A stretch of DNA of 64,000 nucleotides from Rickettsiales bacterium (GTDB taxonomy: Bacteria; Pseudomonadota; Alphaproteobacteria; Rs-D84). This document shows positions 4,145 through 47,215 of the stretch, in pieces. The notes beneath the pieces were generated by a model that was not told the origin of the DNA, searched no databases, and saw only the letters and a program-made list of their open reading frames with translations. The DNA is taken from NCBI GenBank assembly GCA_031265235.1, contig JAISCX010000029.1:19137-83136 (forward strand). The letters are read 5' to 3'. Position numbers and translations under genes: made by a program. Position 1 is the stretch's first letter. Each line of letters opens with the position of its first letter.

Positions 4145-5158
4145 TTATATCAATCTTCCAATCTCTGCGGCTGTCGCGCACATGCGGTTCGAAAAACCCC
4201 ATTCGTTATCATACCAAGACGTGACATGCAAAAGCTTGCCATCGACAACCTTGGTCAGGGTCGCGTCAAATATGCTTGAACGCGGATCATTCATAAAGTC
4301 CACGGACACCAGCGGCAGTTCGTTGTATCCCAATACGCCGGCTAGTTTCCCGTCCGCGGCTTTTTTCATGGCCGCGTTGACTTCCGCTTCTGTCACGGCT
4401 TTTTCAAGATTGACGACCAGTTCCACGACGGACACATCAGGCGTCGGAACACGGATCGCGACACCGTTCAATTTTCCTTCCAATTTTGGCAGGACTAATC
4501 CGATCGCCTTGGCCGCGCCCGTACTGGTCGGAATCATGGACACCGCAGCTGCGCGCGCGCGGCGCGGATCCTTGTGATTCTTGTCCAGCAGCTGCTGGTC
4601 GCCGGTATATGCGTGCACGGTTGTCATCCATCCGTCTTTGATTCCGAATGCTTCATCCAGAACCGCGGCCACAGGCGCAAGACAGTTCGTGGTGCACGAA
4701 CCGTTTGATACAATTTTCATGTCTTTGGTCAGAACATCATGGTTCACGCCGTAAACGATTGTGGCATCGGCGCCGTTGCTGGGCGCGGAAACCAATACCC
4801 TCTTCGCGCCCGCGTCAAGATGGACTTTTGCCTTGTCCGCGTCGGTGAATATTCCGGTGCATTCCATAACTATATCGATATCCAGTTCGCGCCAAGGCAG
4901 ATTCGTCGGATCCCTTTCAGAAACCACGGTGATATTATGCCCGCCGACCTTTATAACATTTCCATCAACATCAATCGGCATGTTCAATTTGCCATGGACG
5001 GAATCATATTCCAAAAGATACGCGTTTTGTTCCAGCGGCGCGATGTCGTTGATGGCGACAAATTCCAAATCGTCGCGTTTTGATTCCAGCGCCGCGCGCA
5101 GAATAAGCCTTCCGATGCGTCCGAACCCACTGATTGCAATTCTTGTTTTTTTACTCAT
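4145..5158 (-). CDS. gap: glyceraldehyde-3-phosphate dehydrogenase
   Basis: MSKKTRIAISGFGRIGR NAD-binding N-terminus and ASCTTNCLAP active-site motif. The true start is the ATG at 5158 (337 aa). The longer ORF to 5455 is an upstream in-frame extension with no homology. Confidence 0.9.
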   Translation of the reverse strand: MSKKTRIAISGFGRIGRLILRAALESKRDDLEFVAINDIAPLEQNAYLLEYDSVHGKLNMPIDVDGNVIKVGGHNITVVSERDPTNLPWRELDIDIVMECTGIFTDADKAKVHLDAGAKRVLVSAPSNGADATIVYGVNHDVLTKDMKIVSNGSCTTNCLAPVAAVLDEAFGIKDGWMTTVHAYTGDQQLLDKNHKDPRRARAAAVSMIPTSTGAAKAIGLVLPKLEGKLNGVAIRVPTPDVSVVELVVNLEKAVTEAEVNAAMKKAADGKLAGVLGYNELPLVSVDFMNDPRSSIFDATLTKVVDGKLLHVTSWYDNEWGFSNRMCATAAEIGRLI

Positions 5159-5282
5159 ATTTTTTCTCCTTGATAAAATATTGGACCCTAGATCGTGTCT
5201 ACAAATTATTGTGTGATTTGTAGACACGACTTGGATTATGCCACAAATAAAATTAAAATCCATTGGGAATTTTTTCAAAACA

Positions 5283-5825: not shown

Positions 5826-6722
5826 ATGAACAGGACGTCTTACATAGTCGCGGGGCCAACGGCATCCGGCAAATCTGATTTCGCGCACCTACTGGCACTG
5901 CGGACCGGCGGGGTGATTATAAATTGCGACAGCGTCCAGATGTATCGCGGTATAGAAAACATCAGCGCGTCGCCATTCGCAAATCGCGCATTGACAGACG
6001 ACATAGGCGGCGTCCCGTATAAACTTTTTTCAATACTGCCATTGACCGAACAAATTTCCGTCGCCGATTATCTGGAACGGGCGCGATTGGCATTATCCGC
6101 GGCGCGCGCATCCGGGCGTCCCGCGATTTTTGTCGGCGGCACGGGATTTTATATCAGCGCCCTGCTCTTTGGCATTTCGCCCATACCGGAAATTTCAAAT
6201 GAAAATCGCGCGCGCGCGCGCGACATGGTGCGCGATTATCCGGACGCCGCTTTGCGGCTGCTTAAAAACGCCGATCCTGATAATGCGTATACGGACCCCC
6301 AGCGAATGTCGCGCGCGTTGGAAGTATTTCTTGAAACCGGGCGACCAATGGCGGAATGGCAGACATTGCCGAAACGCGGCGCGATCACGCCGGACGCGTT
6401 TAATATCCTGATAAATCCGCACAAGGAAATTTTGGCGGCGCGGATTGCAAAACGCATTCCGGAAATGATGCAAGGCGGCGCAATGGACGAAGCCCGGGCA
6501 GTGATCGCAGCCGGCTGGGAAAAAGAACGCGCCATTGGCGCGTCGGAACTGGTAAAGCTTATCAGGAACGAAATCAGCGAAAAAGAATGCATGCAGAATT
6601 GGGAAACGCGCACGATCCAATATTCCAAGCGCCAGCGCACTTGGTTTCGGAATCAATACGCGGCCGACATTGAAATCCCGCATGTGCCGACAGAAAAAGA
6701 CTTGGATGCGGTTTTATCATGA
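5826..6722 (+). CDS. miaA: tRNA dimethylallyltransferase
   Basis: N-terminal P-loop YIVAGPTASGKSDFA and MiaA fold. Start taken at the ATG at 5826. The upstream part of the 449-aa ORF has no homology and overlaps the 5322 gene. Confidence 0.9.
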   Translation: MNRTSYIVAGPTASGKSDFAHLLALRTGGVIINCDSVQMYRGIENISASPFANRALTDDIGGVPYKLFSILPLTEQISVADYLERARLALSAARASGRPAIFVGGTGFYISALLFGISPIPEISNENRARARDMVRDYPDAALRLLKNADPDNAYTDPQRMSRALEVFLETGRPMAEWQTLPKRGAITPDAFNILINPHKEILAARIAKRIPEMMQGGAMDEARAVIAAGWEKERAIGASELVKLIRNEISEKECMQNWETRTIQYSKRQRTWFRNQYAADIEIPHVPTEKDLDAVLS

Positions 6723-8917
6723 CGTTCAATCCCGGCGATATTATAAAGGTTCTGGTTCCCATCGCGATTGGCGACGGGTATGACTATCGTCTGGCAATGC
6801 CCGCAGAAATCGGACAGTTTGCCAGCGTCTATGTAATGAACCGGCTTTATGTCGGCGTAATCGTCGGCCTTGGGACATCCAATCTGCCGCATGATAAAAT
6901 CAAGCCGGTCACAGCGATTCATGATTCGCGGCTATCGTCTTGCGATTTGCAATGGATTATGAAGATGTCCGACTGGACAATGATGCCGCCGGGCGCGGTG
7001 CTGCGGCTGATTATTAATGTTCCCGAAGCTTTCGCACCGCAAAAAACGGAACCCCTGTTCGCATATGTTGAGCAGGAAAAAATGTGGATGACCGAACAGC
7101 GCCAGTCCGTCGCCGACGCATTCGCGTCAAATGATTCCGAACCTATGTCCGCTGGGGATATTCAAAACATCGCACGCGTCAGCCCGGCTGTTGTCCGCAC
7201 GATGATAAAAAATGGAATTTTAAAGCAATCTTCTGAAAAAATCATAAATCATAAACCTGAAATCACAAATTATCATGATACGGGAAATGTAATTCTGAAT
7301 GCCGAACAACAGTCCGCCGCGGATTCCATATCGGCTTTCGGTTCCCGGTTCTCGGTTCACGTTCTTGACGGCATCACCGGCAGCGGCAAGACCCAGGTAT
7401 ATTTCGACGCGGCCATTCGCGCATACCAGGGCGGGCGCAGCGTATTATTAATGATGCCGGAAATCGCGCTGACCGCGCAGTTTATGTCTCGATTCGAAGG
7501 GCGGTTTGGCGCAAAGCCCGTCGTATGGCACAGCAATCTGACCGCGGCAAAGCGCCGCGATATCTGGCGCGGGATCGCGGCTGGCGACATTCGCATTATC
7601 GTCGGAACGCGCAGCGCGTTGTTTTTGCCGTGGCAAGATTTGGGATTGATTGTTGTTGATGAAGAACATGACGCATCATACAAACAGGAAGATATGGGGA
7701 ATTATCATGCGCGCGACATGGCGGTATTGCGCGCAAAGATTTCGGATTTTCCGGTGATTCTGGCATCCGCGACGCCCAGTGCGGAAACGATAAAAAAAAT
7801 AGCCGACGGCGCGTATAAGCGTTCGCGTCTGACATCCCGCTTTGGCGGCGCGCAAATACCAACTATCGAAACGATTGATATGCGGAAAGACAGGCCCGAG
7901 AAATTCCCATCCCCCCTGGATAGCGCGGAATCGCCCGGACACCTGTCTCCGACCCTTTGCGGCGCCATTACAGAAACATTGAACGCGGGACGGCAAATCA
8001 TGCTGTTCATCAACCGTCGCGGATACGCGCCGATCACCCAATGCAGAAAGTGCGGATGGGTCGCGCAATGCCCCGATTGTTCCGTCGGCATGACTCATCA
8101 CAAGAAAAGGGGCGCGTTGCTGTGCCATGTCTGCGGGCGGACCATGCCGATGCCATCGGTCTGTCCCGAATGCGGCGGCGCGATTTCGCAGACCGGCATT
8201 GGCATCGAAAAAATCGAAGCGGAATGCAAAGCCCGATGGCACGACGCCCGCATAGCAATAGTATCATCAGATACCATGCAATCGCGCCAGGCATTGGAAC
8301 GTTTGGTCCGGCATATGGAATCAGGCGAGATTGATATTGTCATAGGCACGCAAATCTTGGCCAAGGGACATCATTTCCCCAACTTGACCCTGGTTGGCGT
8401 TGTGGATGCTGATCAGGGATTGTTCGGAACTGACTTTCGCGCGGGCGAACGGACCTTTCAACAATTATTCCAGGTCGCGGGACGCGCGGGACGGGGACAA
8501 ACGCCGGGGCGCGTTCTGTTGCAGACTTACCAGCCGGAACATCCGGTGATAAAGGCGATTGTCGCGGGCAACCGGGATAAATTGATGGACATGGATTTGG
8601 ATGGTCGCCGCGCCGCGGGCATGCCGCCATACGGCCAGCTGGTCGCATTGATTGCCGAGGGACAAAAGGAAACAACGCTGCAAAATTACTGCGCAAGCCT
8701 GGCCGCATGCGCGCCGCGTGCAGAAAAAATAAAGGTATTCGGCCCGATACCCGCACAGATTTACCAAATAAGAAATTGGTTCCGCATGCGGTTTTTAATC
8801 GGTGCGCCGGAACGCGTCAAGATCCAAGAATTTGTGAAAGCCTGGATGGACCGCGCGCCGAAAATGCCTGCGAACGTTAAATTAAAAATAGACGTGAACC
8901 CGCAGAATTTTATGTGA
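6719..8917 (+). CDS. priA: primosomal protein N' (replication restart helicase)
   Basis: Walker A GITGSGKT, DEEHD box, Cys4-type zinc-binding region (CRKCGW...CPDCS...CHVCG...CPECG). 732 aa. ATGA overlap with miaA. Confidence 0.95.
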   Translation: MTFNPGDIIKVLVPIAIGDGYDYRLAMPAEIGQFASVYVMNRLYVGVIVGLGTSNLPHDKIKPVTAIHDSRLSSCDLQWIMKMSDWTMMPPGAVLRLIINVPEAFAPQKTEPLFAYVEQEKMWMTEQRQSVADAFASNDSEPMSAGDIQNIARVSPAVVRTMIKNGILKQSSEKIINHKPEITNYHDTGNVILNAEQQSAADSISAFGSRFSVHVLDGITGSGKTQVYFDAAIRAYQGGRSVLLMMPEIALTAQFMSRFEGRFGAKPVVWHSNLTAAKRRDIWRGIAAGDIRIIVGTRSALFLPWQDLGLIVVDEEHDASYKQEDMGNYHARDMAVLRAKISDFPVILASATPSAETIKKIADGAYKRSRLTSRFGGAQIPTIETIDMRKDRPEKFPSPLDSAESPGHLSPTLCGAITETLNAGRQIMLFINRRGYAPITQCRKCGWVAQCPDCSVGMTHHKKRGALLCHVCGRTMPMPSVCPECGGAISQTGIGIEKIEAECKARWHDARIAIVSSDTMQSRQALERLVRHMESGEIDIVIGTQILAKGHHFPNLTLVGVVDADQGLFGTDFRAGERTFQQLFQVAGRAGRGQTPGRVLLQTYQPEHPVIKAIVAGNRDKLMDMDLDGRRAAGMPPYGQLVALIAEGQKETTLQNYCASLAACAPRAEKIKVFGPIPAQIYQIRNWFRMRFLIGAPERVKIQEFVKAWMDRAPKMPANVKLKIDVNPQNFM

Positions 8918-9357: not shown

Positions 9358-10707
9358 TCAAACCAGCGCGCATGCGTCCGCAGATTGACGGTTCAGCCGG
9401 CGCAGCAATCCGAACATCAGGCATGCCGCCAGCGCGCAGGAAAAAATATCGCCGACCGGCCATAAAACCATCAGGCCCTTGATCCCCCAGAAATACGAAC
9501 CGATATATATGGCCGGCAATGCGAATCCGATCGCACGCATAAAGTTCAGAATCAGCGAACGCATGTAATGCCCGGTCGCGTTCATAAATACGCCGGATAC
9601 GAACACCATGCCCAAAAATGGAAAGCTGATCGCCAGCCAGCTGATCGCGCGTGCCGCCAGCGCGCTTGACGCGCCGTCGCCGAATGCGCTGGCCAGCGTG
9701 CCGCCGAAAACCCAGATCGCCACCATCGCCGCGCAAAGCCAGACTTCGGTTGCAAAGAATGCTTTCATCAGCGCCGAACGCACGCGGGCGAATTTCCCGG
9801 CGCCGTAATTGTATCCGGCGATTGCCTGCATCGCCTGGGTGAATCCGAATACCGGCATCGTTAAAAATTGCTGGACAACGATGACGACCGCCCACGCGCC
9901 TATGGCGACGTCGCCACCATTCTTGGCCAGAACACCATTGACCACAAAGCTGTTCGCCGCGAATGCCAGATGCAGGACGAACGGCGCGGCGCCGAATTTG
10001 CAGATCGTCCACATTACGCGCGGACTGGGCATTTCAAAGGCAAGCCGCACCACGGATTTCCTGAACGAAAACGCCACCATGACAAATATCGAAAACATCG
10101 CGACCGCGGTGGCGATGCCGGCGCCGGCCATACCCATGTCCATATGAATTATAAGAACATAGTCCAGGATTATATTCACGACGCTGCCCGCAATCGCGTT
10201 CGCCATGGCGCGCCCGGGGCGGCCCAGGCTGCGCACGAACTGGTTCAGTCCGTTTCCCATTATGTCGAAAAATACCCCGCATAAAAGAAACGTCATGAAT
10301 TGCCGCGCAAGTGGCAAGGTCTCTGCCGACGCGCCGCACGCAATCAGAATATCGTTCATAAAAAAGCCGGTTGCCGCGATGTATGCCGCGCCCAGAATGC
10401 TCTGCAGCCATATGGTATTTCGCACGATTTTGTTTGCGGCCGGCGCGTCCCCGCAGCCAAGCTTTATGGAGAATAAGGCGTTCCCGCCAACGCCGCAAAG
10501 AAGATTGATTGTTATCGCGATCAGAAACAGCGGCGCGGCAATGCCAAGCGCAGCAAGCCCGGTGTCGCCCAAAGCCGCGCCGATAAAGATTCTGTTGGAT
10601 GCGTTGTAAACGGCGCCGACCATGAACGATATTATTGCGGGCATCGCAAACCGCCACAGTAACCCGCCGACCGGCGCCGTCCCAAGACGCGTTGTTTCCT
10701 TGTTCAT
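9358..10707 (-). CDS. MATE-family multidrug efflux transporter (NorM-like)
   Basis: 449 aa with 12 predicted TM helices and MATE signature segments. An internal duplication is apparent. Confidence 0.85.
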   Translation of the reverse strand: MNKETTRLGTAPVGGLLWRFAMPAIISFMVGAVYNASNRIFIGAALGDTGLAALGIAAPLFLIAITINLLCGVGGNALFSIKLGCGDAPAANKIVRNTIWLQSILGAAYIAATGFFMNDILIACGASAETLPLARQFMTFLLCGVFFDIMGNGLNQFVRSLGRPGRAMANAIAGSVVNIILDYVLIIHMDMGMAGAGIATAVAMFSIFVMVAFSFRKSVVRLAFEMPSPRVMWTICKFGAAPFVLHLAFAANSFVVNGVLAKNGGDVAIGAWAVVIVVQQFLTMPVFGFTQAMQAIAGYNYGAGKFARVRSALMKAFFATEVWLCAAMVAIWVFGGTLASAFGDGASSALAARAISWLAISFPFLGMVFVSGVFMNATGHYMRSLILNFMRAIGFALPAIYIGSYFWGIKGLMVLWPVGDIFSCALAACLMFGLLRRLNRQSADACALV

Positions 10708-11006: not shown

Positions 11007-11888
11007 ATGATTATAGAAAACAAACTGGATAACTTTACATGGATTCGCGTGTATTATCCGGACAAGGACGACTTTGAGTCTCTTCTTTCCGATTATAAAA
11101 TAGATGAAGACACGCTTGGCGACATACTTGACCCGGACGAACAGCCGCGCATAGAAAGCGAAGACGATTACAAACTTATCATCATCAGATTCCCGATATC
11201 CAATTCCGAGATTGATAAAATCTGGCATACAGAGCCGATGGGGATAATATATACCAAAAGCAAAGTGGTGACCATATGCCGCAAACGCTGCGACATTTTA
11301 GACAAAATACAGCTTAGCCTTATGGAATCGAAAGAGTATTTCATACTGGACATAATAAACAAAATCGCGGAAAGATATCTGAAATCGCTGAAATCCCTGA
11401 ATACCGAAGTATTCAAGTCAAAGCAAAAATTAACGAAAAAAATACGGAAACAGCACCTGTTGAAACTGCTGGACATCGAGAACAGCTATACGCTTTACCT
11501 TGCCGGATTAAAAGGCAACAACAGCGTGATGGAAAAACTGGACAAGATGCGTTCGTTCAACAATGACGAAGAGTGCGAAGAATTGCTGGACGACGCGCGC
11601 GTCGAAATCAATCAAGCCATCGAAACAACGGTGTCTTATTCGAAAATGCTGGCGGCTATAAAGAATACTTTCGAATCGGTGATCAATATAGATTCCAATA
11701 CTTACATCAACCGACTGACTATGTGGACGATCATACTGATCGCACCGACGATCGTGGTCGGGTTTTACGGAATGAACATGGCCCTGCCCTTTGCGCAGTA
11801 TGAAATTACATCGGTTGTGATATTCTGGATGATCATGCTTTTAATCCTGGCGTACGGAATTTATTCGTTTGTTAAAAAAAGGGGTTAA
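11007..11888 (+). CDS. corA: CorA-family magnesium/cobalt transporter
   Basis: C-terminal YGMNM (GMN) signature flanked by two TM helices. 293 aa. Confidence 0.8.
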   Translation: MIIENKLDNFTWIRVYYPDKDDFESLLSDYKIDEDTLGDILDPDEQPRIESEDDYKLIIIRFPISNSEIDKIWHTEPMGIIYTKSKVVTICRKRCDILDKIQLSLMESKEYFILDIINKIAERYLKSLKSLNTEVFKSKQKLTKKIRKQHLLKLLDIENSYTLYLAGLKGNNSVMEKLDKMRSFNNDEECEELLDDARVEINQAIETTVSYSKMLAAIKNTFESVINIDSNTYINRLTMWTIILIAPTIVVGFYGMNMALPFAQYEITSVVIFWMIMLLILAYGIYSFVKKRG

Positions 11889-11921
11889 AAAATCGCCGCA
11901 ACCGCGGCGATTCTTTTTGTA
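11889..11921 (+). terminator. rho-independent terminator after corA
   Basis: AATCGCCGC-AACC-GCGGCGATT followed by CTTTTTG. Confidence 0.6.
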
Positions 11922-12026
11922 AATCAATTAGAGCGTGCCAGATGCGCCGATTAAGGCGGCGGGAGTGTATTGAACATACACGACCAAAGCTTTAATCGGT
12001 GCAGATGGTGCGTTATAATTGATTTA
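11920..12026. repeat. 107-bp imperfect palindromic element (copy X) forming the 3' end of the downstream cysteine-rich gene
   Basis: Perfect 11-bp terminal inverted repeats TAAATCAATTA / TAATTGATTTA. Central hairpin GTGTAT-TGAAC-ATACAC at the exact midpoint. Internal CAGATGCGCC boxes. The minus-strand TAA stop of the 12024..14627 gene lies inside the terminal repeat. Confidence 0.8.
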
Positions 12027-14627
12027 CATCGGGATGTCTTTGCAACTTTCGTCAGGCTTTTCTTCGGTGCATTCCATTCCGCGGCTGTCCCAAAGCCCCA
12101 AGAATCCGCGGCTGCCCTTGGTCTTGCAGTTTTTGCGAATGACCAATGTGCAGTAATGACAGTTTCGGTCTTTGCGGTTGAATATGGACCACATTTCTTT
12201 CGTGCCGCCTTCGAATTCAACCTTGTGATGATCGGATGACAACATTCCGATTGCCTTGACCGATGCATCCGCAATCATGCCCGCCGGATTTAGCGTCAAG
12301 ATCGCGCCCGCCGCGCCCAGCGCCGTACTCGTCGCGCCACCATCACTGCCGCCGGCAGCAGCACCGCTTTTTGTTTCCATTTTCGCACCGCCAAGTTTTT
12401 CAGACGAATGCGTTCCGCCAGCCGCGATAGACGCATTTGACACACCTGCGATTTCAAGAACTATGGCATACGGAATGCTGATCACACCTACGAAGTCGGA
12501 CGCCGCTATCCCTTGGGCGGAACCGTTGGTCGCCGGCAGCTTGTTGCACATCAAATTGGCAACGTCCGTGCTGGCGCTCTTGGTTGCTTCTGCCATCAAT
12601 TCATTGAACTTTTTATTATAATTATCCGTAGCCGCACGAATTGCGGACATCGCGATTGCCATCTTGATTTGATTCAACAGATTTGGGAATCTTCCCTTTG
12701 TTGAACCGCCGCCTTCTTTTATCTGGGACAAATCGCGACCGGTAATGCAATATTGAATCTTTGGATCTTGTTCGATCATATCGATCGCCGTATTTATCTT
12801 GCCCTGGATACTTTCCATTTCATAGCGCACATTATCTATGACGCTGGCGTATTCTGCCGGCACGCCCAAAGCGTCCACCTTTGCGATATAGTCTTGAATG
12901 TCAATCTTTCCGGGGGCAAGCGTTATCTCTTGACCGCTTGCATCCTTTACTTTGCTTTGTCCGTTGCCAACCTTTATCTGTCCGAAAGACAACATTCCGG
13001 TTATGCTGTATATTCCGCCGCGTTTTTGACTATTAAGCGACGACGTGCCGATGTTTTCGTCCGTCGCGAACTTGTCGCAGTCCGTAGTGCTGTCGCAGAT
13101 TTCCATCATTTTCGTGTTTACAATGTTCTGGCAATTTTCCAACGCCGAATTATCCACGTTCAAATAAAATCCCATCAGCATATTGTCTATATCGGACATG
13201 GAAAAATCTTTGTTTCCCTGCTTGCACACGACCAGCTTGTCCACCGGGCACATTTCATGCATATATTTATAATCCATGCCGATACAGTTCATAAAATCAG
13301 ATCCGCAGCGGTCGTCGGATGTAAAGCATTCCTTTACTTCCTCGGTGCAGCGATCCACGCGCATCGCGGCCAGCTTGTCCTTTACATATCCCCAGATTAA
13401 CGGTTCCATCCGTTCGCACGGGTCAATCTGATTCTTGCAGAAACTGCGCGCCATGTCCGGACGCGACAGGCATGAATCCATGGTGTCCACGCCCTTACCG
13501 ACGATATCGTCCTTGCACGCCTTTTGTATACAGCCGGAAATATCGGTCAGGCACGACTGGCGCATATTGGATTCAATGTTCAATTCCGCAGTCTTTAATT
13601 CCGGCGCGATATCGCGGATAAAGTCGGGCCACACCTGGTCCCTTACCGCGACGCATTGATCCAGAATACTTTCGCACATATTGCGTTTGGAATCCAACAT
13701 CTCGCGCGTGTTCGTCGAAATGCCATACTTGTCTATGTGCTCTACCTTTGTTTTCGCGGTGCTGACTGTCGCGGCCTGCATGTTTTCTGCCGCAACATAT
13801 TTCGCACAGCGCGACCAGTCTTCGCCACAGACATCCGGTCCCATCATGCATTTTTTAAAGCCAATCAAACAAGTCCCGCGGTCAAGTTTGTTCGATTCTT
13901 CAAATGACGCCAGACGCGCGTCGCGCACGTCTTTCTGGGCGCTTGCCAATTCCGCATCCGCCTTGCGCGATAATTCCTTTACCGCATTGTCAAAAGCCTT
14001 GCAGTCGTTTTTAACCTGGGTCGCGTAAAGCTGGGTCAGCATCATCTGATCTTTTTCGCAGGAATCCGGCATTTGATCAAGGCAAAGTCCGCGCGCGGCA
14101 TTGTAAAGCACAACCCCTGTCTTGCCGGCAACCGATTCCACGCTGCTCCAAATATCTTCGTTGTCGTCGTTCCAAAGGGACAACAAATCCAGCTTTTTTT
14201 GTTCCTTATTTGCCTTATTTTCTTTTTTTTCCAAACTGATCACATTGCCCTGGGCGTCGTATTGGCGATCCCCGCCAAAGACTATGTCTGCCTTTGCGCC
14301 GACCTGGATTTTTTCAACCTCTATCGTGCGCAGATTTTCGGCGTTTTTAAGCTGTGTCTCGATATCGGAAAGAACTTTTTCATACTTTACATTCTCGTCG
14401 CTGCATGCGCATGCACCGCCGGATTCATTGTCGGAAGTGCAGAACGAATCCATGCATCCGAAATAATTGTCGTAACATTCTTGGGAAAACAGTCCCGTTG
14501 GCTGGACTTTCTGGCGTATGGTCGTGCCGCTTGCGATAACGGACGTTTTCTTTGCGGTAACAGGGGCCGCATGCGCGTCAAAAATAAGCAATGAAAAAGA
14601 AATTGCGACAAATAATATTTTCTTCAT
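12024..14627 (-). CDS. secreted cysteine-rich protein, paralog family member P1 (867 aa)
   Basis: Signal peptide MKKILFVAISFSLLIFDAHA. Family motifs are ECYDNYFGCMDSFC...CACS, CLIGFKKCMMGPDVCGEDWSRC and CESILDQCVAV. A C-terminal Gly-rich hydrophobic (glycine-zipper) segment is followed by RNCHYC and a ...ESCKDIPM tail. Confidence 0.8.
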   Translation of the reverse strand: MKKILFVAISFSLLIFDAHAAPVTAKKTSVIASGTTIRQKVQPTGLFSQECYDNYFGCMDSFCTSDNESGGACACSDENVKYEKVLSDIETQLKNAENLRTIEVEKIQVGAKADIVFGGDRQYDAQGNVISLEKKENKANKEQKKLDLLSLWNDDNEDIWSSVESVAGKTGVVLYNAARGLCLDQMPDSCEKDQMMLTQLYATQVKNDCKAFDNAVKELSRKADAELASAQKDVRDARLASFEESNKLDRGTCLIGFKKCMMGPDVCGEDWSRCAKYVAAENMQAATVSTAKTKVEHIDKYGISTNTREMLDSKRNMCESILDQCVAVRDQVWPDFIRDIAPELKTAELNIESNMRQSCLTDISGCIQKACKDDIVGKGVDTMDSCLSRPDMARSFCKNQIDPCERMEPLIWGYVKDKLAAMRVDRCTEEVKECFTSDDRCGSDFMNCIGMDYKYMHEMCPVDKLVVCKQGNKDFSMSDIDNMLMGFYLNVDNSALENCQNIVNTKMMEICDSTTDCDKFATDENIGTSSLNSQKRGGIYSITGMLSFGQIKVGNGQSKVKDASGQEITLAPGKIDIQDYIAKVDALGVPAEYASVIDNVRYEMESIQGKINTAIDMIEQDPKIQYCITGRDLSQIKEGGGSTKGRFPNLLNQIKMAIAMSAIRAATDNYNKKFNELMAEATKSASTDVANLMCNKLPATNGSAQGIAASDFVGVISIPYAIVLEIAGVSNASIAAGGTHSSEKLGGAKMETKSGAAAGGSDGGATSTALGAAGAILTLNPAGMIADASVKAIGMLSSDHHKVEFEGGTKEMWSIFNRKDRNCHYCTLVIRKNCKTKGSRGFLGLWDSRGMECTEEKPDESCKDIPM

Positions 14628-14644
14628 TTTTTCTCTCTCTCCTA

Positions 14645-14751
14645 AAAATCAATCAGGATGGTGTAGATGCGTGGATTCGCAGACCCGACGTGTATTGGAC
14701 ATACACGAGGGTCGGTGAATGCGCGCAGATGCGCCATTATGATTGATTTTA
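14645..14751. repeat. 107-bp imperfect palindromic element (copy Y) forming the 3' end of the second cysteine-rich gene
   Basis: Terminal inverted repeats AAAATCAATCA / TGATTGATTTT (11/11), central GTGTAT-TGGAC-ATACAC hairpin at the midpoint, TAGATGCG / CAGATGCGCC boxes. The TAA stop of the 14749..16791 gene sits in the terminal repeat. Same length as copy X and alignable with it. Confidence 0.8.
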
Positions 14752-16791: not shown

Positions 16792-16916
16792 CTCTTATCC
16801 CCGATGTTGGTACGTGTTAATTTTATCAGAAAAAGTTAAAAGAATAAAGTTAAAAATTGAAATTTCGATCGTTGCGCGACAGCGCAGGCCGACATTTTAA
16901 CTTTCGGTTTTAATAA

Positions 16917-16945
16917 AAAAATCCGCCGTCCGGCGGATTTTTTTA
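16917..16945. terminator. bidirectional rho-independent terminator downstream of infA
   Basis: AAAATCCGCCGTCCGGCGGATTTTTTT. The identical 28-nt module recurs at 25499. Confidence 0.7.
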
Positions 16946-17200
16946 TTCGGTCGGCACAGCGTCGGTCGGCGCGGGCGCGCGATTGCGTTCGGCGCGCGTT
17001 ATGCGGCCCTTGTCCAGATCATACGGGGTCATTTCAACCTGGACCTTTTCGCCAACGTTCACCCAGATGCGATTTTTTCGCATCTTGCCGCACACGGTCG
17101 CGACAATCTCGTGCCCATTTTCTAACCGGACGCGAAACATTGTGTTGGGCATTTTATCCACAACCACACCGCTGAAAGTTATAACTTCGTCTCTTGCCAT
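16943..17200 (-). CDS. infA: translation initiation factor IF-1
   Basis: [69 protein letters not shown] is an S1-like fold and the IF-1 consensus. Confidence 0.9.
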
Positions 17201-25173: not shown

Positions 25174-25500
25174 ATGTTTTCCGTTCTTCTTACATTGCTT
25201 ATAATTATCGCCGTTATGATGATCGGCGTGATATTATTGCAAAAATCCGAAGGTTCCGGCATGTCAGGCAGCAGCGCCGCCAGCATGTTCGGCGGCGCGC
25301 TGACGGGCGCATCGGCGGGAAACTTTCTGACCCGGGCGACCGCTGTTCTGGCCACTATATTTTTTATCTTGTGCGCGGCGCTGGCGATCGTGGTTGCCAA
25401 AACGAACAAAGCGGCCCAAGAATCCGAATTGCGCCAGGAACTGGTCGCGCCATCACAGACCGCGCCGATCCCCGCCCCGGTAACAGTTCCGGAAAATTAA
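25174..25500 (+). CDS. secG: preprotein translocase subunit SecG
   Basis: MFSVLLTLLIIIAVMMIGVILLQKSEGSG...FGG is the SecG consensus with two TM helices and Gly-rich loops. Confidence 0.8.
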   Translation: MFSVLLTLLIIIAVMMIGVILLQKSEGSGMSGSSAASMFGGALTGASAGNFLTRATAVLATIFFILCAALAIVVAKTNKAAQESELRQELVAPSQTAPIPAPVTVPEN

Positions 25501-25527
25501 AATCCGCCGTCCGGCGGATTTTTTTAA
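25499..25527. terminator. bidirectional rho-independent terminator (secG and ankyrin operon)
   Basis: AAAATCCGCCGTCCGGCGGATTTTTTT, identical to the module at 16917. Confidence 0.7.
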
Positions 25528-26489
25528 CAGCCTAATTCTTTCATTATATCAGCCCTGACTTGATTCGCTTTTGCTTGCGCGCAAACGCTCCGCCCCCAGC
25601 TGTCCTTGTCATCCAATCTCGCGCCTTTCTCTTTTAATTTTACCACAGCATCCTTGCATTCGTAATATGCCGCCTCTCTTATAGCAGAAAATCCATAAGT
25701 TCCTTTGCTATTCACATCAGCGCCATTATCTATCAAGAAATTTATGAAATCCATATTACAATGCCGGGCTGCAATAAAAAGCGCGGTCCCCCTGGCAGAA
25801 TCTTGATAATCTATTATATCAGGGTGTTCTGTTATCAAATTTTTTGCTTCTTCAAACTGCTTTGCAAACACTGCATCAATCATTTGTTCCGATACAGGTT
25901 TTTCTTCTTTTGGGGTATTTGATGATATTACTTGCTCAACATTTGCTGTATTTTGTTCACATGCAAACATCTGACGAATTTGTCCGCTTCCGTCCGCCAA
26001 AGTGCAATGCATGATTTTCGTAAAACCATTTTCTCTGGTTACTATTTCGCTACGATCATTGGTGCAAGTTATATTCGGTGTAAATTTGGGGCCCAATTCT
26101 CGATTTACATATTCTTCACTTAAAAATTCGCATGCTTTTGCGCCTTCGTCTATCAAATTCTGTGCGATCACATTTTCATCTGATTCATTTTGATTTTCCT
26201 GATCACCGCCGGAACCAAGCAGACCGTCCGCCCCAGGAATAGCCCCGCCCAATGTGCTCAATAAATTATTATCGGTGACGGCGCCGGTAACTTGTTCAAT
26301 AATACCGCCAGCGTTCTTAGCCGCGCAAACGCCTTTGCTTTCATCATATTTTTTTTCCTTTAATTCGCACACAGCTTCTGTATGTTTTTTCAAAATTTTA
26401 TCCGCTTCCTCTATATCAACCGCAGCCGCATGCGCGACGCTGGAAAGCGCAAAGGTAAAAATAATAAAAGAAGCAATCTTTTTAAACAT
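25524..26489 (-). CDS. secreted ankyrin-repeat protein
   Basis: Start taken at MFKKIASFIIFTFALSSVAHA (signal peptide). The C-terminal half has 3-4 ankyrin repeats (GTALFIAARHCNMDFINFLIDNGADVNSKGTYGFSAI...). TGATG stop/start overlap with the upstream gene. Confidence 0.7.
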   Translation of the reverse strand: MFKKIASFIIFTFALSSVAHAAAVDIEEADKILKKHTEAVCELKEKKYDESKGVCAAKNAGGIIEQVTGAVTDNNLLSTLGGAIPGADGLLGSGGDQENQNESDENVIAQNLIDEGAKACEFLSEEYVNRELGPKFTPNITCTNDRSEIVTRENGFTKIMHCTLADGSGQIRQMFACEQNTANVEQVISSNTPKEEKPVSEQMIDAVFAKQFEEAKNLITEHPDIIDYQDSARGTALFIAARHCNMDFINFLIDNGADVNSKGTYGFSAIREAAYYECKDAVVKLKEKGARLDDKDSWGRSVCAQAKANQVRADIMKELGC

Positions 26490-28387: not shown

Positions 28388-29341
28388 TTATTCAAACGCC
28401 AATACGCGTTCTATTCCGCCCAGATCATTGTGCGCGGATGCAAATTTCCAACTGTTCGCCGCAAAAATTTCACGCACAGCGTTACCCTGGTCCGCACCGA
28501 TTTCAAGGAATATTTGCCCGCCCGGCTTTAACAGCCGCCGCACGGATTTCGCAATAGCGCGATAAGCAGAAAGCCCGTCCGCGCCGGCATACAGCGCCAT
28601 CTTTGGATCATGCCGCGCGCCTGCGTCCACCTGCGGATCGCCCGTCGCGATGTATGGGGGGTTGGATATGATAATGTCAAATTGTGATTTGTGATTTATG
28701 ATTTGTGATTTGAAATCTTTTCTTATTATTTTTATCCTGTCATCCAATCCCAGATTCCGAACATTTCTCCGGGCGACCCGGCATGCGCGCATGGATTTAT
28801 CAATCCCGATTCCGGTCGCATTCGGGATATTCTTTATTATAGAACAAATCAAACAACCTGTGCCTGTCCCCAGGTCCAGGATGCAAGTGTCATCCCGGAA
28901 ATTTTTCGCAGAATGCGAAAAATTATCCGGGACCTGGTGGGGCTGGGAATTATAAATATTTTTTCTATCGGAAATATTTTTTAATGCCTGGTCTTGACCA
29001 GATCCCGGGTCCATCGGCGCAAATGCGCCGATGCCCCGGGATGACACATAACCCAAAACCGCTTCTACCAATATTTCGCTATCCGGGCGGGGATCCAGCG
29101 TCGCCCCACCCGTTTCGAATTCCAACCCATAAAACCATTTTTTCCCGACGATTTTTGCAACCGGAATGCCGCGCCGCAGTTTCCATGCCGCGCGCGAAAC
29201 CGAAATACGAAATACCAGATATGAAATAATGGACATATGTTTTCGTATATCGCATTTCGACAAAATCCAATCCAACACGATGCGCGCGTCATGCGCATTG
29301 CCGGATTTTGCCAAAATTTCAAACGCTTGATTTAATTTCAC
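28388..29341 (-). CDS. prmC: release-factor glutamine N5-methyltransferase PrmC (HemK) carrying a 54-codon in-frame palindromic-element insertion
   Basis: N-terminal HemK helical domain (LDPRPDSEILVE), motif I ILDLGTGTGCL, motif IV IISNPPYI. An extra 54 aa (residues about 98-151) lie between the N-domain and motif I. They are encoded by element copy B. Confidence 0.85.
   Translation of the reverse strand: MKLNQAFEILAKSGNAHDARIVLDWILSKCDIRKHMSIISYLVFRISVSRAAWKLRRGIPVAKIVGKKWFYGLEFETGGATLDPRPDSEILVEAVLGYVSSRGIGAFAPMDPGSGQDQALKNISDRKNIYNSQPHQVPDNFSHSAKNFRDDTCILDLGTGTGCLICSIIKNIPNATGIGIDKSMRACRVARRNVRNLGLDDRIKIIRKDFKSQIINHKSQFDIIISNPPYIATGDPQVDAGARHDPKMALYAGADGLSAYRAIAKSVRRLLKPGGQIFLEIGADQGNAVREIFAANSWKFASAHNDLGGIERVLAFE
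28683..28710. repeat. heptanucleotide tandem repeat (TGTGATT x4) inside prmC
   Basis: TGTGATT TGTGATT TATGATT TGTGATT encodes the reiterated HKSQI(I/T)N peptide just upstream of the NPPY motif. Confidence 0.6.
28887..29048. mobile_element. RPE-like palindromic repeat element, copy B, inserted in-frame in prmC
   Basis: 162 bp (54 codons). Terminal inverted repeats GTGTCATCCCGGAAATTTTTC / CCCGGGATGACAC, sub-hairpin TTTCGCAGAATGCGAAA, arms CCGGGACCTGGTGGGG / ACCAGATCCCGGG. Alignable block-for-block with copy A. Confidence 0.75.
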
Positions 29342-37423: not shown

Positions 37424-37485
37424 AAAAATTCCTTTTGGTCTTGAATAATTATGAAAAAAATCCCGACAAAAAGCAACATGATAAA

Positions 37486-37512
37486 AAAAACCGCCTTTCG
37501 GCGGATTTTTCA
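37486..37512 (-). terminator. rho-independent terminator downstream of rpsU
   Basis: AAACCGCCTTTCGGCGGATTTTT hairpin with a T-run on the minus strand. Confidence 0.6.
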
Positions 37513-37618
37513 AAAATCAATTTAGATGAGATGAATGCACAGTTTTGACCAAAGAGAGCGTATTGAACATACGTGATTGGCGGTCAAAACAATCAGGCAT
37601 CCATAGAAATCGATTTTT

Positions 37619-37825
37619 CTAGAAGCCAAAGACCATTCTTTGCTTGGACTGTCTTTTCTTTTCTTTGCGGACGGCTTCTTCTTTCAGTCGTTTGCGCATT
37701 GTCGTCGGCTTTTCATAACGCTGGCGTTCCTTGGACTCGCGATACAGGCCCTCTTTCTGGGATTTTCTTTTCGCCACGCGCAATGCTTGCTCTACATTAT
37801 TGTCGCGCACTAAAACTTTGACCAT
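37619..37825 (-). CDS. rpsU: 30S ribosomal protein S21
   Basis: MVKVLVRDNNVEQALRVAKRKSQKEGLYRESKERQRYEKPTTMRKRLKEEAVRK is the S21 consensus. Start taken at the second Met. Confidence 0.85.
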   Translation of the reverse strand: MVKVLVRDNNVEQALRVAKRKSQKEGLYRESKERQRYEKPTTMRKRLKEEAVRKEKKRQSKQRMVFGF

Positions 37826-40754: not shown

Positions 40755-42374
40755 ATGCTTGCAACCAAAGAAACCTTGTTGTTCTCGGAAAATCCTGTCT
40801 ATAAAAATCTGCCATTGGAATTCACGCGGACCGTGAACGCGGACAATTCTGAATCATACACCGTTTATTTCAAAAAAGATGGAAAGCGCGCGAACATAAT
40901 ATCCAAAGGAGCAAGGCGGGCGTATCAAATCATGGCCGCGCATGGTGACAGCATTATTCTAAAGCGCCGTGGAAAGAACGGAATTGCAAGCCTTTTGCGT
41001 ATTTCAAAGAAAACGGGGGCAAAGGACGAAGATATTGTATTCGGCGCGGAAGAAATCGCGGTCTCTACAAATGAAGACTCTGTTTATATAAGCGCATTTA
41101 CAGACGCCAAGCGCATCAGCACGCCGAATTATTACTGTAAAATAAAAAACGGAAAGTTAGAGCATGTTTTAAACCGCCCGTCGTTCAACATAAGGATTTA
41201 CAAAAATACCGACAACGGCGACGACGTAAAGAAGGCGTCTGAAAACACGACGGTCGCAAAGAAAAAGGGCCGCGCGACACCGCCGTATGAAGACATGGAT
41301 TTGAAAAGACTGCGGACAAGGCTTTGCCAGCTGAAATATCAGATAAAAAAAGGCACGCGCACTTCGCCAATCCCGAAAGAGCTGACCGACGCCATATTTA
41401 AAAAAGAAGCCGCAGAATCGCTGGATACTGTCGATAGAAAATTAAATGCCCCGAAAGTGCGGTATTCCGACAGAACGCTGACACAGTTATGCCAGCTGCT
41501 TTACTGCATGCGCAATGCTATAAAACATGGAAAGCGCAAGTCCCCTATTCCGGATGATTTGATTGCAGAGATTAAAAAAAAGAAAGCCACAGCGAAAGCC
41601 GCAAAACAGGAAAAAGCGCCGGTTGCAAAAACTGCGCCGGCACCAACAGCGGCACCGGCAGAAATCACAGCGGAACAGGTTCTGGAATTCGTCGCAAAAA
41701 ATCCCTGGATTATAAAGGATATTCTGCGCGACATTGCCGATTCAATCGCATCTGAAAAACCGGCCACAGAAAAGAAGACGCGAAATTCCGGCGGCACAAA
41801 GCCCGCCCCTGTATTCACAGAATCGGACGATGAACAGGAATTGACGGAATTGACAACTTCTTCAACAGCCGCCCAGCCGATTCCAGAACCAGAGTCCGTC
41901 AATCCTATTCCCATAGCAAAAGAATCTATAAAAGCAGAGAATCCTGGTCCCGCGCCAAAGGCGCCGACGCTGGGCGAGAATGATGTTCCGGTCAAAATTA
42001 TTGTCAAAAAGCAATACCTGAACGGTGCATTGGTTGATATATCTGCAAAAAAAGTTCCGCTTTTGCAGAATATTATCTATATAAATGCAGAAGTTTTACT
42101 TGATGGCAAGGTAATAGACTTTCATATCCAGAACCAAAATAATCCCCAGGAACACAAAGTCTTTTTTGCAAACGGTCTGCAAAAGAAATTCACCGGTCAG
42201 AACAAGTTCTCCAAAACAGCCGTTTATATAACGACTGTCACACAATTTGAAAACGGACTGATGATAGAGCTTAGCAATAATCAAAAATATATTACCAATA
42301 TGCAGGAAATAAACAAGCAGGCCGGCGCAAGGCGGTTTGTCATTGTTGAAAACCAGGTAATTGCATCAATGTAA
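40755..42374 (+). CDS. hypothetical protein with internal about 57-aa repeats and Pro/Ala/Glu-rich linker
   Basis: 539 aa. Repeats LCQLKYQIKKGTRTSPIPKELTDAIFKKE and LCQLLYCMRNAIKHGKRKSPIPDDLIAEIKKKK. Low GC and no signal peptide. Confidence 0.5.
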   Translation: MLATKETLLFSENPVYKNLPLEFTRTVNADNSESYTVYFKKDGKRANIISKGARRAYQIMAAHGDSIILKRRGKNGIASLLRISKKTGAKDEDIVFGAEEIAVSTNEDSVYISAFTDAKRISTPNYYCKIKNGKLEHVLNRPSFNIRIYKNTDNGDDVKKASENTTVAKKKGRATPPYEDMDLKRLRTRLCQLKYQIKKGTRTSPIPKELTDAIFKKEAAESLDTVDRKLNAPKVRYSDRTLTQLCQLLYCMRNAIKHGKRKSPIPDDLIAEIKKKKATAKAAKQEKAPVAKTAPAPTAAPAEITAEQVLEFVAKNPWIIKDILRDIADSIASEKPATEKKTRNSGGTKPAPVFTESDDEQELTELTTSSTAAQPIPEPESVNPIPIAKESIKAENPGPAPKAPTLGENDVPVKIIVKKQYLNGALVDISAKKVPLLQNIIYINAEVLLDGKVIDFHIQNQNNPQEHKVFFANGLQKKFTGQNKFSKTAVYITTVTQFENGLMIELSNNQKYITNMQEINKQAGARRFVIVENQVIASM

Positions 42375-42403
42375 AAAATCCGCACTATGTGCGGATTTTT
42401 TAT
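42375..42403 (+). terminator. rho-independent terminator
   Basis: AAAATCCGCAC-TATG-TGCGGATTTT followed by TT. Confidence 0.7.
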
Positions 42404-42723
42404 TACCTCGTTTTTAGTGCCAAAATGTCCCATTATGACCTATGATACGCTGTGATGTGCTACTTTGACACAACTACCACTCAGACAGATTTAAAGAAAA
42501 ATAATCCAAAATGATGCCAAACAAGGCATTAGAAAAAGACATATGCGAGACATAGGATTTGGACATATCCCGGACATTTTGGAATACTGTGAAAGACATA
42601 ATGGTTGATTTTTATACAGATTTATGATATAATGGCTCTAACAAAGGCGGAATTCTATTCCGCTGTTTTTATCCGACCCTGCATTCGTGCAGGGCCTTTT
42701 TTATAAAACAAAAAGGAATAATT

Positions 42724-45517: not shown

Positions 45518-47215
45518 ATGAAAAAAGTCAGTCTATTAGCTATTATTGCGTTGCTTGCTTCCGCACCTGGTGTAAGTAGTGCCGATACTCTTGCTCTTAC
45601 ATCAGATGGGTCGTCTGTATCGGGGGACTCGGGAATTGATGCCCACGCTGTTTCAGATTTACTATCTGCAACAACCATAAGCGGATTCGGTATTTCCGAT
45701 GCTTATACAAAAACAGAAGTTAATACTAAATTTGATAATTTGGGCGATTTAGCCAGTAAGGATCTTATTGACTCTTCGGATATCACTGACGGTGCAGTTA
45801 CTGCCAACAAGCTTGGAGCAAGCTCTGTAACGACAACGAAAATTGACAACAACGCGGTCACTGCTGACAAACTTGCAGCGAACTCTGTAACGGAAGCGAA
45901 GATCAACGACGGTGCGGTTACGACAGCAAAGATCAACGACGGCGCGGTCACTAACTATAAGATTGCTGACGACTCTATCTCGGAAACGAAGATCCAAGGC
46001 AGCGCGGTTACGACCGACAAGCTTGCAGATAACTCTGTAACGGAAGCAAAGATCAACGACGGTGCGGTCACGACAGCAAAGATTGACAATAGTGCTGTCA
46101 CTGCTGACAAACTTGCAGCGAACTCTGTAACGGAAGCGAAGATCAACGACGGCGCAGTCACGACAGCGAAGATCAACGACGGTGCGGTCACGACTGATAA
46201 ACTCGTTGACGGTGCAGTCACTAATTATAAGATTGCAGACGACTCTATCTCGGAAACGAAGATCCAGGGCAGCGCGGTTACGACCGACAAGCTTGCAGAT
46301 AACTCTATCTCGACAGCGAAGATCCAGGATAATGCAGTTGAATTTGGTAAGCTGTCGTCGGATGTTCAAAACACCTTGAACCTTGTCGGCAATGGAGACT
46401 TTACTTCCGCCACTAATATTGCGTCATCTTCCACCACTCTTACCGATGCAATTCTTAACCTTGACACCACGATCGGCGATATGACGACAATCAGCGGGGC
46501 CCATCATGCGGCACTGGGCAACGACACTATTGCCGGCGCCATTGCCGCCATCGATACCAGGATTGACGATGTCATACGCCGCGACGGCAACTATGGATCC
46601 GGTTCCAACCTGATACACATCGGTCAGAATTCAATAGTTCTTGATGAAACCACCGGCGATATGTATTTTGACGGAACCGGCAGCGATACGCTCGCCATCC
46701 GGACGGTATCCGCGAAAGACGCATCATTCCAAGATGTCGCGACAACGGACATCACCGGCGACGGCATATACACCAGCACGTATAACATCGCGGCGACCGA
46801 TACCTTGACCGCGGCCGCCAGCAAACTTGACGCCACGATCGGTGATATGACGACGCTGCGCAACCAGATCAACAGCGGAACGCTGGTCGGTTCTCTGAAC
46901 AATATGTATGATTATGCCGAAAGCAATATCATCCGTTTGGATGGGCGCATTGATTCCGTAGAAGCACGCCTGGACGACATGACCACAGAAATGCGTTCGA
47001 TGTTCGCCGGCGCGGCGGCTATGTCGGCATTGGTTCCTAATGCGCGTGCAAAGGGAAACACCCAGATTTCGTTCGGCGCGGGAACATATCGCGACCAATA
47101 CGGGATCGCGGCCGGCGCGTTCCATTACGTGAACGACAACATTCTTTTGAATGCTGGCGCAGCATATAGCAATGACAACTTTACAGGTCGCGTTGGTGTA
47201 ACAATCGGCTGGTAA
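45518..47215 (+). CDS. trimeric autotransporter adhesin (YadA-like C-terminal anchor) with decapeptide-repeat stalk
   Basis: Signal peptide MKKVSLLAIIALLASAPGVSSA. 19 tandem 10-aa repeats (xxxAVTxxKI/L). C-terminus ...MSALVPNARAKGNTQISFGAGTYRDQYGIAAGAFHYVNDNILLNAGAAYSNDNFTGRVGVTIGW matches the YadA membrane-anchor consensus, ending in W. Confidence 0.8.
   Translation: MKKVSLLAIIALLASAPGVSSADTLALTSDGSSVSGDSGIDAHAVSDLLSATTISGFGISDAYTKTEVNTKFDNLGDLASKDLIDSSDITDGAVTANKLGASSVTTTKIDNNAVTADKLAANSVTEAKINDGAVTTAKINDGAVTNYKIADDSISETKIQGSAVTTDKLADNSVTEAKINDGAVTTAKIDNSAVTADKLAANSVTEAKINDGAVTTAKINDGAVTTDKLVDGAVTNYKIADDSISETKIQGSAVTTDKLADNSISTAKIQDNAVEFGKLSSDVQNTLNLVGNGDFTSATNIASSSTTLTDAILNLDTTIGDMTTISGAHHAALGNDTIAGAIAAIDTRIDDVIRRDGNYGSGSNLIHIGQNSIVLDETTGDMYFDGTGSDTLAIRTVSAKDASFQDVATTDITGDGIYTSTYNIAATDTLTAAASKLDATIGDMTTLRNQINSGTLVGSLNNMYDYAESNIIRLDGRIDSVEARLDDMTTEMRSMFAGAAAMSALVPNARAKGNTQISFGAGTYRDQYGIAAGAFHYVNDNILLNAGAAYSNDNFTGRVGVTIGW
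45779..46349 (+). repeat. 30-bp tandem repeat array (about 19 units, with a higher-order duplication of about 285 bp)
   Basis: Reiterated AACTCTGTAACGGAAGCGAAGATCAACGACGGTGCGGTCACGACAGC-type units. Generates artefactual minus-strand ORFs. Confidence 0.85.

Follow-up and report, generated by a model that had tools for sequence, protein, structure and literature searches.

A family of palindromic repeats at gene ends in uncultured gut Rickettsiales-like Alphaproteobacteria

Small palindromic repeats of bacterial genomes are usually scattered intergenically and in both orientations. Rickettsia palindromic elements (RPE) are old, diverged families that are said to retain hairpin potential, and they are known for in-frame insertion within protein-coding genes. 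SPRITE elements have AAAA/TTTT ends and are enriched at the 3' ends of coding sequences (CDS) (PMC3049150). Correia RNA is cleaved by RNase III, and the 3' ERIC has RNase E effects (PMC10969869). Ribosomes can stall, with lowered expression, at REPs that lie 15 nt or less from a stop codon (PMC12306157). Stem loops of IS605 are found at the 3' ends of Borrelia lipoprotein genes (PMC2775950). The subject of this analysis is an imperfect palindrome directly downstream of a Cys-rich gene, here called P1, in a 64,000-nt stretch of a Rickettsiales bacterium genome (contig JAISCX010000029.1; the whole stretch is referred to as the window), together with related copies in the window and in other contigs. 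Loci in other contigs carry the prefix L. The sense strand is that of the host gene mRNA, and the antisense strand is its complement.

P1 is an open reading frame (ORF) of 867 aa on the - strand (positions 12024..14627) that ends in ATG TAA, and the TAA lies inside the outer arm of the palindrome (copy 1). The two arms of copy 1 are 53 nt each (positions 11918–11970 and 11976–12028) and are separated by a loop of 5 nt. Watson-Crick pairs are present at 40 of the 53 positions (75%); the other 13 are non-Watson-Crick, and "near-perfect dyad", the description in the initial annotation, is therefore too strong. The perfect 11-bp terminal inverted repeats that it reported are present, TAAATCAATTA (positions 11920–11930) and TAATTGATTTA (positions 12016–12026), and the perfect pairing extends further, to 13 bp (TGTAAATCAATTA/TAATTGATTTACA). 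The central hairpin GTGTAT-GTTCA-ATACAC, the paired CATCTG boxes, the P1 stop codon within the outer inverted repeat and the corA terminator adjoining the other side were all found as proposed (Table 1). Pairing of box 1 with box 2 leaves a 2x2 internal loop, which consists of tandem G-A/A-G on the + strand and of U-C/C-U on the mRNA strand.

RNA secondary structure modeling shows that the 107-bp palindrome proposed after P1 is real. The fold in gene orientation has a z value of -7.8 and that of the opposite strand a z value of -12.5, and for both strands 0 of 200 shuffles are as good (energies are given in Table 1). The initial annotation thus described the element correctly but on its weaker-folding strand. 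The covariance-model score shows the same order, with 99.9 bits on the + strand and 56.1 bits on the - strand.

Copy 1 has relatives. A model search of the window with filters off reveals three copies only, all in one orientation; the other matches are ordinary terminators. Copy 2 (106.9 bits) is located between P2 and P1. Copy 3 (95.9 bits) is more degenerate than copies 1 and 2 and follows rpsU, the product of which was identified as S21. All three share a two-box pattern, AAATCAAT exactly 38 nt ahead of GTATTGRACATAC. A strict two-box scan of public genome contigs and metagenome contigs gave 14 stretches, six of them with the hairpin, representing five distinct copies (L006, L007, L010, L012 and L013; L006 and L009 are the same); the remaining stretches are chance matches. 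L006 is from a termite-gut "Alphaproteobacteria" metagenome-assembled genome (MAG). The covariance model was built from these eight copies, three from the window and five found by pattern, and it revealed about four to five more in contigs that had been fetched for unrelated reasons, namely copies downstream of rpsU (L015 and L022), rpsR (L026) and an autotransporter gene (L055). The sample is thus 13 copies at 12 independent loci, from ~340 kb of DNA of the lineage. The pattern by which five copies were ascertained fixes the outer box and the apex, but not the orientation or position relative to a gene.

The L015 and L022 copies are orthologous to each other and have a variant outer stem with the same apex. 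Beyond this variant rpsU hairpin there is an orphan distal-arm motif (AATTGATTTA / ATTAGATTTTTT; positions 10320–10335 in L015 and ~756–775 in L022), which suggests that the outer helix was remodeled after loss of the proximal arm.

Searches of Rfam, viral contigs, plasmids and phages yielded nothing similar to the element. Rfam gave no match at or above the gathering threshold (the window gave two tRNAs only), and a permissive Rfam scan produced only noise, on the terminator that adjoins the element. The apical motif occurs in 27 stretches of viral contigs, and the covariance model confirmed none of them. Plasmids and phages, searched by BLASTN with copies 1 and 2, have no match, four further contigs with P1 homologues have no copy, and exact-protein look-ups with P1 and ClpP returned no contig. 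The best explanation of these observations is a previously undescribed family of palindromic interspersed repeats of ~105–115 bp, which as far as sampled is confined to uncultured gut (mostly termite) Rickettsiales-like Alphaproteobacteria. The initial annotation held that a lack of copies other than that at P2 would indicate duplicated flanking DNA; the third copy, that of rpsU, and ten others that follow unrelated genes of other genomes show that this is not the case.

Pairing statistics come from eight copies in an unfitted alignment. Of the cells of the consensus hairpin, which has 39 pairs, 91% are paired, and 22 of the 39 pairs have changed on both sides. None of 500 shuffles reaches these values, and sliding one arm reduces the paired fraction to 35–42%. 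Only three segments of the sequence are conserved: AAA(A)ATCAAT/ATTGAT(T)TTT in the outer helix, both GCAGATGC boxes, and the hairpin at the apex together with the GA loop beneath it. The AAATCAAT/ATTGATTT box is invariant in the eight copies, and other copies have variant ends. The tandem G-A loop is also retained; columns 26–27 and 92–93 are G,A in 8–9 of 11 copies. The apical hairpin is the most conserved part of the family, and its stem covaries to GCGTAT/ATACGT and GTGTAC/GTACAT. Between the conserved parts the stem varies freely and compensatory changes keep the pairing. Judged from this alignment, the hairpin is maintained by compensatory changes.

Pairwise identity among the copies is 37–78%. 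Copy 1 is 70% identical to L010 and 69% to L026, which follow unrelated genes in other genomes, compared with 61% to copy 2 and 52% to copy 3. Copying between loci is needed to account for this, as the closest relatives of copy 1 are at unrelated loci in other genomes.

The position of the element relative to genes is fixed. At 12 of 12 independent loci the helix starts 0–4 nt from a stop codon or tRNA end, in a single orientation, and the host gene is always on the strand opposite to the strongly folding strand of the element. The probability of the same orientation at 12 loci by chance is ~0.0005. The four model-found copies follow the same rule of position and orientation. The host genes are P1, P2, rpsU (twice), rpsR, tRNA-Tyr, an OMP-like gene, an autotransporter gene and three others; one host is an exonuclease-like gene. 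Typically a stop codon (TAA, TAG or TGA) is followed by 0–4 A's and then by ATCAAT. The exception is L012, where a longer helix with nine extra pairs begins 4 nt past the stop. In L013 the element is directly after the CCA end of tRNA-Tyr. All 13 copies are outside ORFs.

The sequence beyond the element differs with the locus. A canonical terminator is directly beyond copies 1, 3 and L055, and 30 nt further on in L006. Copies 2 (P2-P1), L026 (rpsR-rplI) and L010 are inside operons, and the next feature is a ribosome-binding site. The helix often reaches into gene-specific sequence. In copy 1 it takes in the last codon's TG, in L010 the GA of TGA pairs with TC, in L013 the ACCA of the tRNA pairs with TGGT, and in L012 there are the nine extra pairs. 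A separate case is present in L026 (positions 9570–9605), where the last codon and stop of the P2 orthologue are within a perfect 14-bp hairpin, ACATGTAAACCGGC-AA-GCCGGTTTACATGT; between P2 and P1 this contig has an inserted 23S_rRNA_IVP gene. Stop-codon pairing seems to be a recurrent feature of the lineage, also where the element is absent.

Comparison with orthologous loci shows that the element comes and goes. L024 has the same P2-P1-corA order and a P1 that is 67% identical, and it is without both copies (ATGTAAAAATAAAAAACCGCG...; ATGTGATTTCTTGTTGGAGAGAGAGAATG). Its P1 ends with ATG TAA AAATAAAAAACCGCGCG, the latter being the terminator, and the P2-P1 gap is 20 nt. There is no element after P1 in L025 and L026. 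In L016–L021 and L023 a plain terminator is directly after rpsU, and the S21 protein is identical to that of the window; the rpsU site is occupied in three lineages. As orthologous sites are empty in the closest relatives, the element must have been gained and lost. Relatives had been proposed as a place to look for varying gene content, but the P2-P1 pair is kept; the hairpin alone varies, not a gene plus its hairpin.

The P1 orthologues that have no element end at the same Met-stop (ATG TAA/TAG), and the element therefore did not create the P1 stop. The initial annotation stated that the element supplies the stop codon. The TAA is indeed paired in the helix, but it is pre-existing. Its point of insertion was after the stop, ahead of either the terminator A-tract or the ribosome-binding site that comes next.

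The termini provide some marks of insertion. TA is found on both flanks at 6 of 12 loci, and other copies are without such TA. In silico deletion of the element and one TA restores an in-frame stop in four of the five cases where the element abuts a stop (copy 1, copy 2, L055, L007 and L026), giving TAG in copy 2 and L055 and TAA in L007 and L026. The same deletion in L012 leaves a perfect 20-bp palindrome with a central TA. The pattern fits a TA-targeting insertion without proving it. The ordinary bidirectional terminators of the genome (families D2/D3) have flanks identical to the outermost 7 bp of the element, AAAAATC...GATTTTT, hinting that the element may mimic or target terminator bases. 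Ordinary bidirectional terminators at positions 16916–16947, 25497–25528, 37484–37515, 42373–42404, 59339–59370 and 11887–11916 share AAAAAATC...GATTTTTT.

The reading favored here, at about even confidence, is a family of non-autonomous, terminator-like palindromic repeats, similar to SPRITE, Correia and ERIC, that are located at gene ends and co-transcribed as a 3' stem loop. The element would spread as a DNA insertion, like a MITE (miniature inverted-repeat transposable element), aimed at the T-A/A-run after stop codons. In common with MITEs it has terminal inverted repeats, a length of 105–115 bp, no coding capacity, dispersed copies (three in 64 kb) and empty orthologous sites. It would be transcribed together with the upstream gene, and the mRNA would form a long interrupted stem loop of ~-45 kcal/mol that starts from the stop codon; in the intercistronic copies (P2-P1 and rpsR-rplI) the sense strand must be transcribed. 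As a structure at 3' ends or between cistrons, the stem loop would probably set the 3' ends of mRNAs or their decay or processing; by analogy it may serve as a substrate for an RNase III-type enzyme, as a barrier to exonucleases or as a leaky terminator. The terminating ribosome would have to melt the helix base at each termination event, because that base includes the stop codon and is within the footprint of the terminating ribosome. The orientation may be fixed since only the weaker-folding strand would be tolerated on the mRNA at the stop.

Several observations weigh against this proposal. The sample is small, 13 copies in ~340 kb. TA is self-complementary and may be a mere extension of the inverted repeat, and the target-site duplication is thus ambiguous. 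No transposase or mobility gene was found among the window ORFs or in the neighbor lists of related contigs. A filter by tolerance would not readily account by itself for the location of 12 of 12 sites exactly at gene ends instead of elsewhere in intergenic regions. The other points concern the strand. As RNA, every copy compared has its more stable fold on the antisense strand, the difference being 1 to 21 kcal/mol (Table 1), and with DNA parameters this strand is the more stable in copies 1 (-33.4 vs -25.6) and 2, the sense strand being more stable in copy 3. The antisense strand folds better because it has an excess of G-U pairs, tandem G-A loops and purine-rich unpaired columns. The ratio of G-U to A-C on this strand is 18:4 in the unfitted alignment, 27:3 in the model-fitted alignment, which leans towards the model, and 32:15 (p = 0.02) in a strand-neutral arm-to-arm alignment. 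Unpaired and internal-loop columns are 72% purine on the antisense strand and include the conserved tandem G-A. By the usual rules such a signature marks the antisense strand as the one selected for structure. Read on the sense strand, 11 of 11 copies are rich in C and poor in G. Around them the mRNA strand is rich in G (G>C), the opposite of what a mutation bias would need to produce the G-U excess, and mutation bias is therefore rejected as the source of the asymmetry. No consistent strand bias in folding is seen for the other long palindromes of these genomes. Taken at face value, the asymmetry points to the main rival, a less probable strand-specific mechanism by single-stranded DNA (ssDNA) or antisense RNA. 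The active form may be the strand antisense to the host gene, as a folded ssDNA substrate for recombination or transposition, or as an antisense RNA or antisense-direction terminator; gene-end position and orientation would then follow from a strand-specific mechanism, as for attC bottom strands or the hairpins of IS200/IS605/REP, and like attC the family has variable sequence with conserved structure, length and ends, and a folding strand antisense to the upstream ORF. However, promoter scans found no sigma-70-like promoter beside copies 1 or 2, and the antisense strand is opposed to the direction of the operon in three copies (2, L010 and L026); in intercistronic copies transcription is expected of the sense strand only. 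The window and the neighbor lists contain no HUH/Y1 transposase, tyrosine recombinase or reverse transcriptase, copy 3 is nearly symmetric as RNA, and selection that merely weakens the mRNA-strand hairpin would give the same asymmetry. A doubtful further reading is a structure-defined, strand-specific mobile hairpin that homes to the nucleotide after the last codon or the tRNA end and is active as antisense ssDNA or RNA, or a one-way "antisense terminator" that shields gene ends. This would represent attC-like single-strand logic outside integrons, with a putative enzyme encoded by the host or by the element.

A non-mobile, vertically inherited cis-regulatory RNA motif, bound by a clade-specific protein and repeatedly arisen or lost at gene ends, would agree with the strong covariation, the conserved loops and boxes, the occupied rpsU sites, and the extension of the helix into gene-specific ends, which suggests selection for pairing of the end of the gene. 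Roles could be in translation termination, coupling or control of mRNA decay. This is nevertheless improbable in view of the empty orthologous sites in the closest relatives, the similarity of copies that follow unrelated genes in different genomes, and hosts that share no function (ribosomal proteins, tRNA, surface proteins and an exonuclease-like gene). An unusually long intrinsic (Rho-independent) terminator would account for the outermost 7 bp and for the short U-run that is past the hairpin on both strands. The initial annotation had set a simple intrinsic terminator aside, with good reason: the stem is rich in A/U at its base, the element is not among the calls of the terminator scan, three copies (1, 3 and L055) precede canonical terminators and three (2, L010 and L026) are intercistronic. 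A flank duplicated with the P1/P2 paralogues is also rejected, as the P2/P1 duplication is ancient and element-free in relatives and the third copy follows rpsU; both explanations are very improbable. Scarcely credible is an integron attC site or attC-like boundary with P1 and P2 as cassettes, a likeness raised in the initial annotation. An imperfect palindrome within the attC range of 57–141 bp is directly after the stops of two successive genes, and structure is conserved while sequence is variable. But the attC cores RYYYAAC (R'') and GTTRRRY (R') are absent from the ends of 11 copies on either strand, Pfam scans of ORFs reveal no integrase, transposase or reverse transcriptase in the 64-kb window, and there is no integrase in the neighbor lists of related contigs. 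P1 is not cassette-like either: P2-P1 is a conserved pair with the same neighbors, present without the element in L024 and L025, and other hosts are the housekeeping genes rpsU, rpsR and tRNA-Tyr.

The initial annotation also mentioned REP/MITE-type elements, which is the right neighborhood, but REP/BIME itself is rejected: the element is 107 bp with AT-rich ends, there is no GTAG/CGTC tag, and no Y1 transposase is present in the window. RPE are set apart by position, as the copies are outside ORFs. Other candidates were dropped on inspection by eye. Resemblance of the GUUCA loop to a T-loop is incompatible with the covarying 6-bp stem, the TTR part of a possible IHF site (WATCAANNNNTTR) in the outer arm is absent, and dif/Xer-like arms are a poor match. 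A Rho-loading (rut) site, considered because C exceeds G on the sense strand, was dropped as the RNA is far too structured. A retron or DGR was dropped since no reverse transcriptase is found anywhere.

Table 1. Features of the palindromic element in the window, and RNA folding energies of the copies compared
Feature	Position	Strand or orientation	Remarks	Antisense RNA (kcal/mol)	Sense RNA (kcal/mol)
Copy 1	11918..12028	+, strongly folding strand; -, P1 mRNA strand	Basis: inverted-repeat scan, folding, covariance model	-66.0	-45.4
Outer helix, distal arm TGTAAATCAATTA	11918..11930		Holds family-conserved box AAATCAAT		
Outer helix, gene-proximal arm TAATTGATTTACA	12016..12028		Includes P1 stop and 2 nt of last Met codon		
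P1 stop codon TAA	12024..12026	-	Base-paired within outer helix of copy 1		
Box 1 CCAGATGCG	11938..11946	+	CAGATG on +, CATCTG in gene orientation; pairs with box 2		
Box 2 GCAGATGG	12001..12008	+	Faces box 1		
Apical hairpin GTGTAT-TGAAC-ATACAC	11965..11981	+	GTGTAT-GTTCA-ATACAC in gene orientation; GA internal loop beneath		
Bidirectional intrinsic terminator	11887..11916	corA (+)/P1 (-)	Directly distal to copy 1 and separate from it		
P1 Shine-Dalgarno AGGAGAGAGAG	14633-14643	-	Adjoins copy 2		
Copy 2	14644..14751	Same as copy 1	Between P2 stop (14749-14751, -) and P1 Shine-Dalgarno	-65.0	-44.6
Copy 3	37512..37620	Same as copy 1	Between rpsU stop TAG (37619-37621, -) and terminator 37481-37511	-35.5	-34.3
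L006				-60.0	-43.0
L007				-56.7	-52.0
L010				-47.3	-41.7
L012				-47.1	-37.0
L013				-61.0	-48.9
L015				-65.1	-60.6
L022				-55.8	-53.3
L055			Folded with flanks	-88.8	-77.2

P1 (12024–14627, -) and P2 (14749–16791, -) are tandem Cys-rich paralogues, each with a signal peptide and without a Pfam domain; near the C-terminus of P2 there is a weak Gly-zipper. P1 is 100% identical to LBK26_03265. The P1 family has >1300 homologues of ~850 aa in gut Alphaproteobacteria MAGs, usually beside infA, and is a large uncharacterized family of surface or secreted proteins.

Related contigs also contain a second class of long near-perfect palindromes, with arms that consist of tandem heptamer arrays (CAAAGTT, GGTATGA, TAAGATT, GAAAAAC). 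These are located in L006 (positions 5084–5233 and 6069–6218), L017 (1994–2143), L015 (4214–4363), L016 (10301–10450), L013 (2372–2521) and L026 (7240–7389 and 19999–20148). An almost perfect palindrome of 140 nt is present as well (-101/-104 kcal/mol). Unlike the element, neither the heptamer-array palindromes nor the 140-nt palindrome have a strand bias in folding energy. In the window, short tandem heptamer arrays at positions 28680–28712 and 7235–7270 (GTGATTT x4; AAATCAT-type) are inside predicted ORFs and share an AAATCA/TGATTT hexamer with the ends of the element. Direct repeats with a 30-nt period are found at positions 45737–46338 within a YadA-anchor adhesin gene (45518..47215). A Phage Mu F-like fragment adjoins a CcrM-type N6/N4 DNA methylase with a RAMA domain (positions 42724–43350 and 44075–45175), and the methylase is syntenic with rpsU/nrdR in relatives.

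A family that is found at gene ends, in one orientation and with the better fold on the antisense strand points to a new mechanism. It could be a targeting system in which gene ends or terminator flanks direct the insertion, or a function tied to one strand. In these uncultured gut symbionts, which have compact genomes, the element would change the 3' ends of transcripts for ribosomal proteins, tRNA and surface proteins. The insertion polymorphisms are lineage-specific and useful for strain tracking. In annotation there is a risk that the element is mistaken for an integron site or a small-RNA gene.

Among known systems, SPRITE elements have many properties of the family described here. They are small palindromes of low copy number with A-run/T-run terminal inverted repeats and a long stem, they are located at CDS 3' ends, and they have no identified transposase and an unclear target-site duplication. 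SPRITE elements are, however, from another phylum, have no sequence relation, and consist of an 18-bp duplex with a long U-rich tail. The element has a stem of ~50 bp with conserved G-A loops and apical hairpin, it is 0–4 nt from the stop in strictly fixed orientation, and its antisense strand folds better. Correia/NEMIS of Neisseria and ERIC/YPAL of enterobacteria are similar in length (100–200 bp), in having terminal inverted repeats, with Correia ending in TA (PMC10969869), and in presence/absence polymorphism between relatives. They are co-transcribed, and their long RNA hairpins are RNase III/RNase E substrates that alter mRNA levels (PMC10969869). Their copies are 70–95% identical, are in both orientations at many intergenic sites, and often have promoters or IHF sites, whereas the element has diverged copies with compensated stems, no promoter signal, and fixed position and orientation.

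RPE are comparable as palindromic repeats of ~100–150 bp in Rickettsiales-type genomes. REP/BIME are extragenic palindromes, often near stops, that can also stabilize upstream mRNA (PMC12306157); REPs are 20–40 nt, GC-rich, with a GTAG/CGTC tag and a link to RAYT transposases, and the element is three times longer. The attC sites are imperfect palindromes of 57–141 bp at or on the stop of the upstream ORF, in which ends and structure are kept, sequence varies, and the strand antisense to the ORF folds "properly". The element differs in that there are no cores, IntI or cassette array, its neighbors are conserved housekeeping genes, and the hairpin alone is gained or lost. The IS605 stem loops of Borrelia are free-standing past stops and are kept by compensatory and G-U changes after loss of the transposase. 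They are ~38 nt with stems of ~14–24 bp, their G-U pairs are on the mRNA strand and the parent insertion sequence (IS) is identifiable, whereas the element has its G-U pairs on the antisense strand and no known parent.

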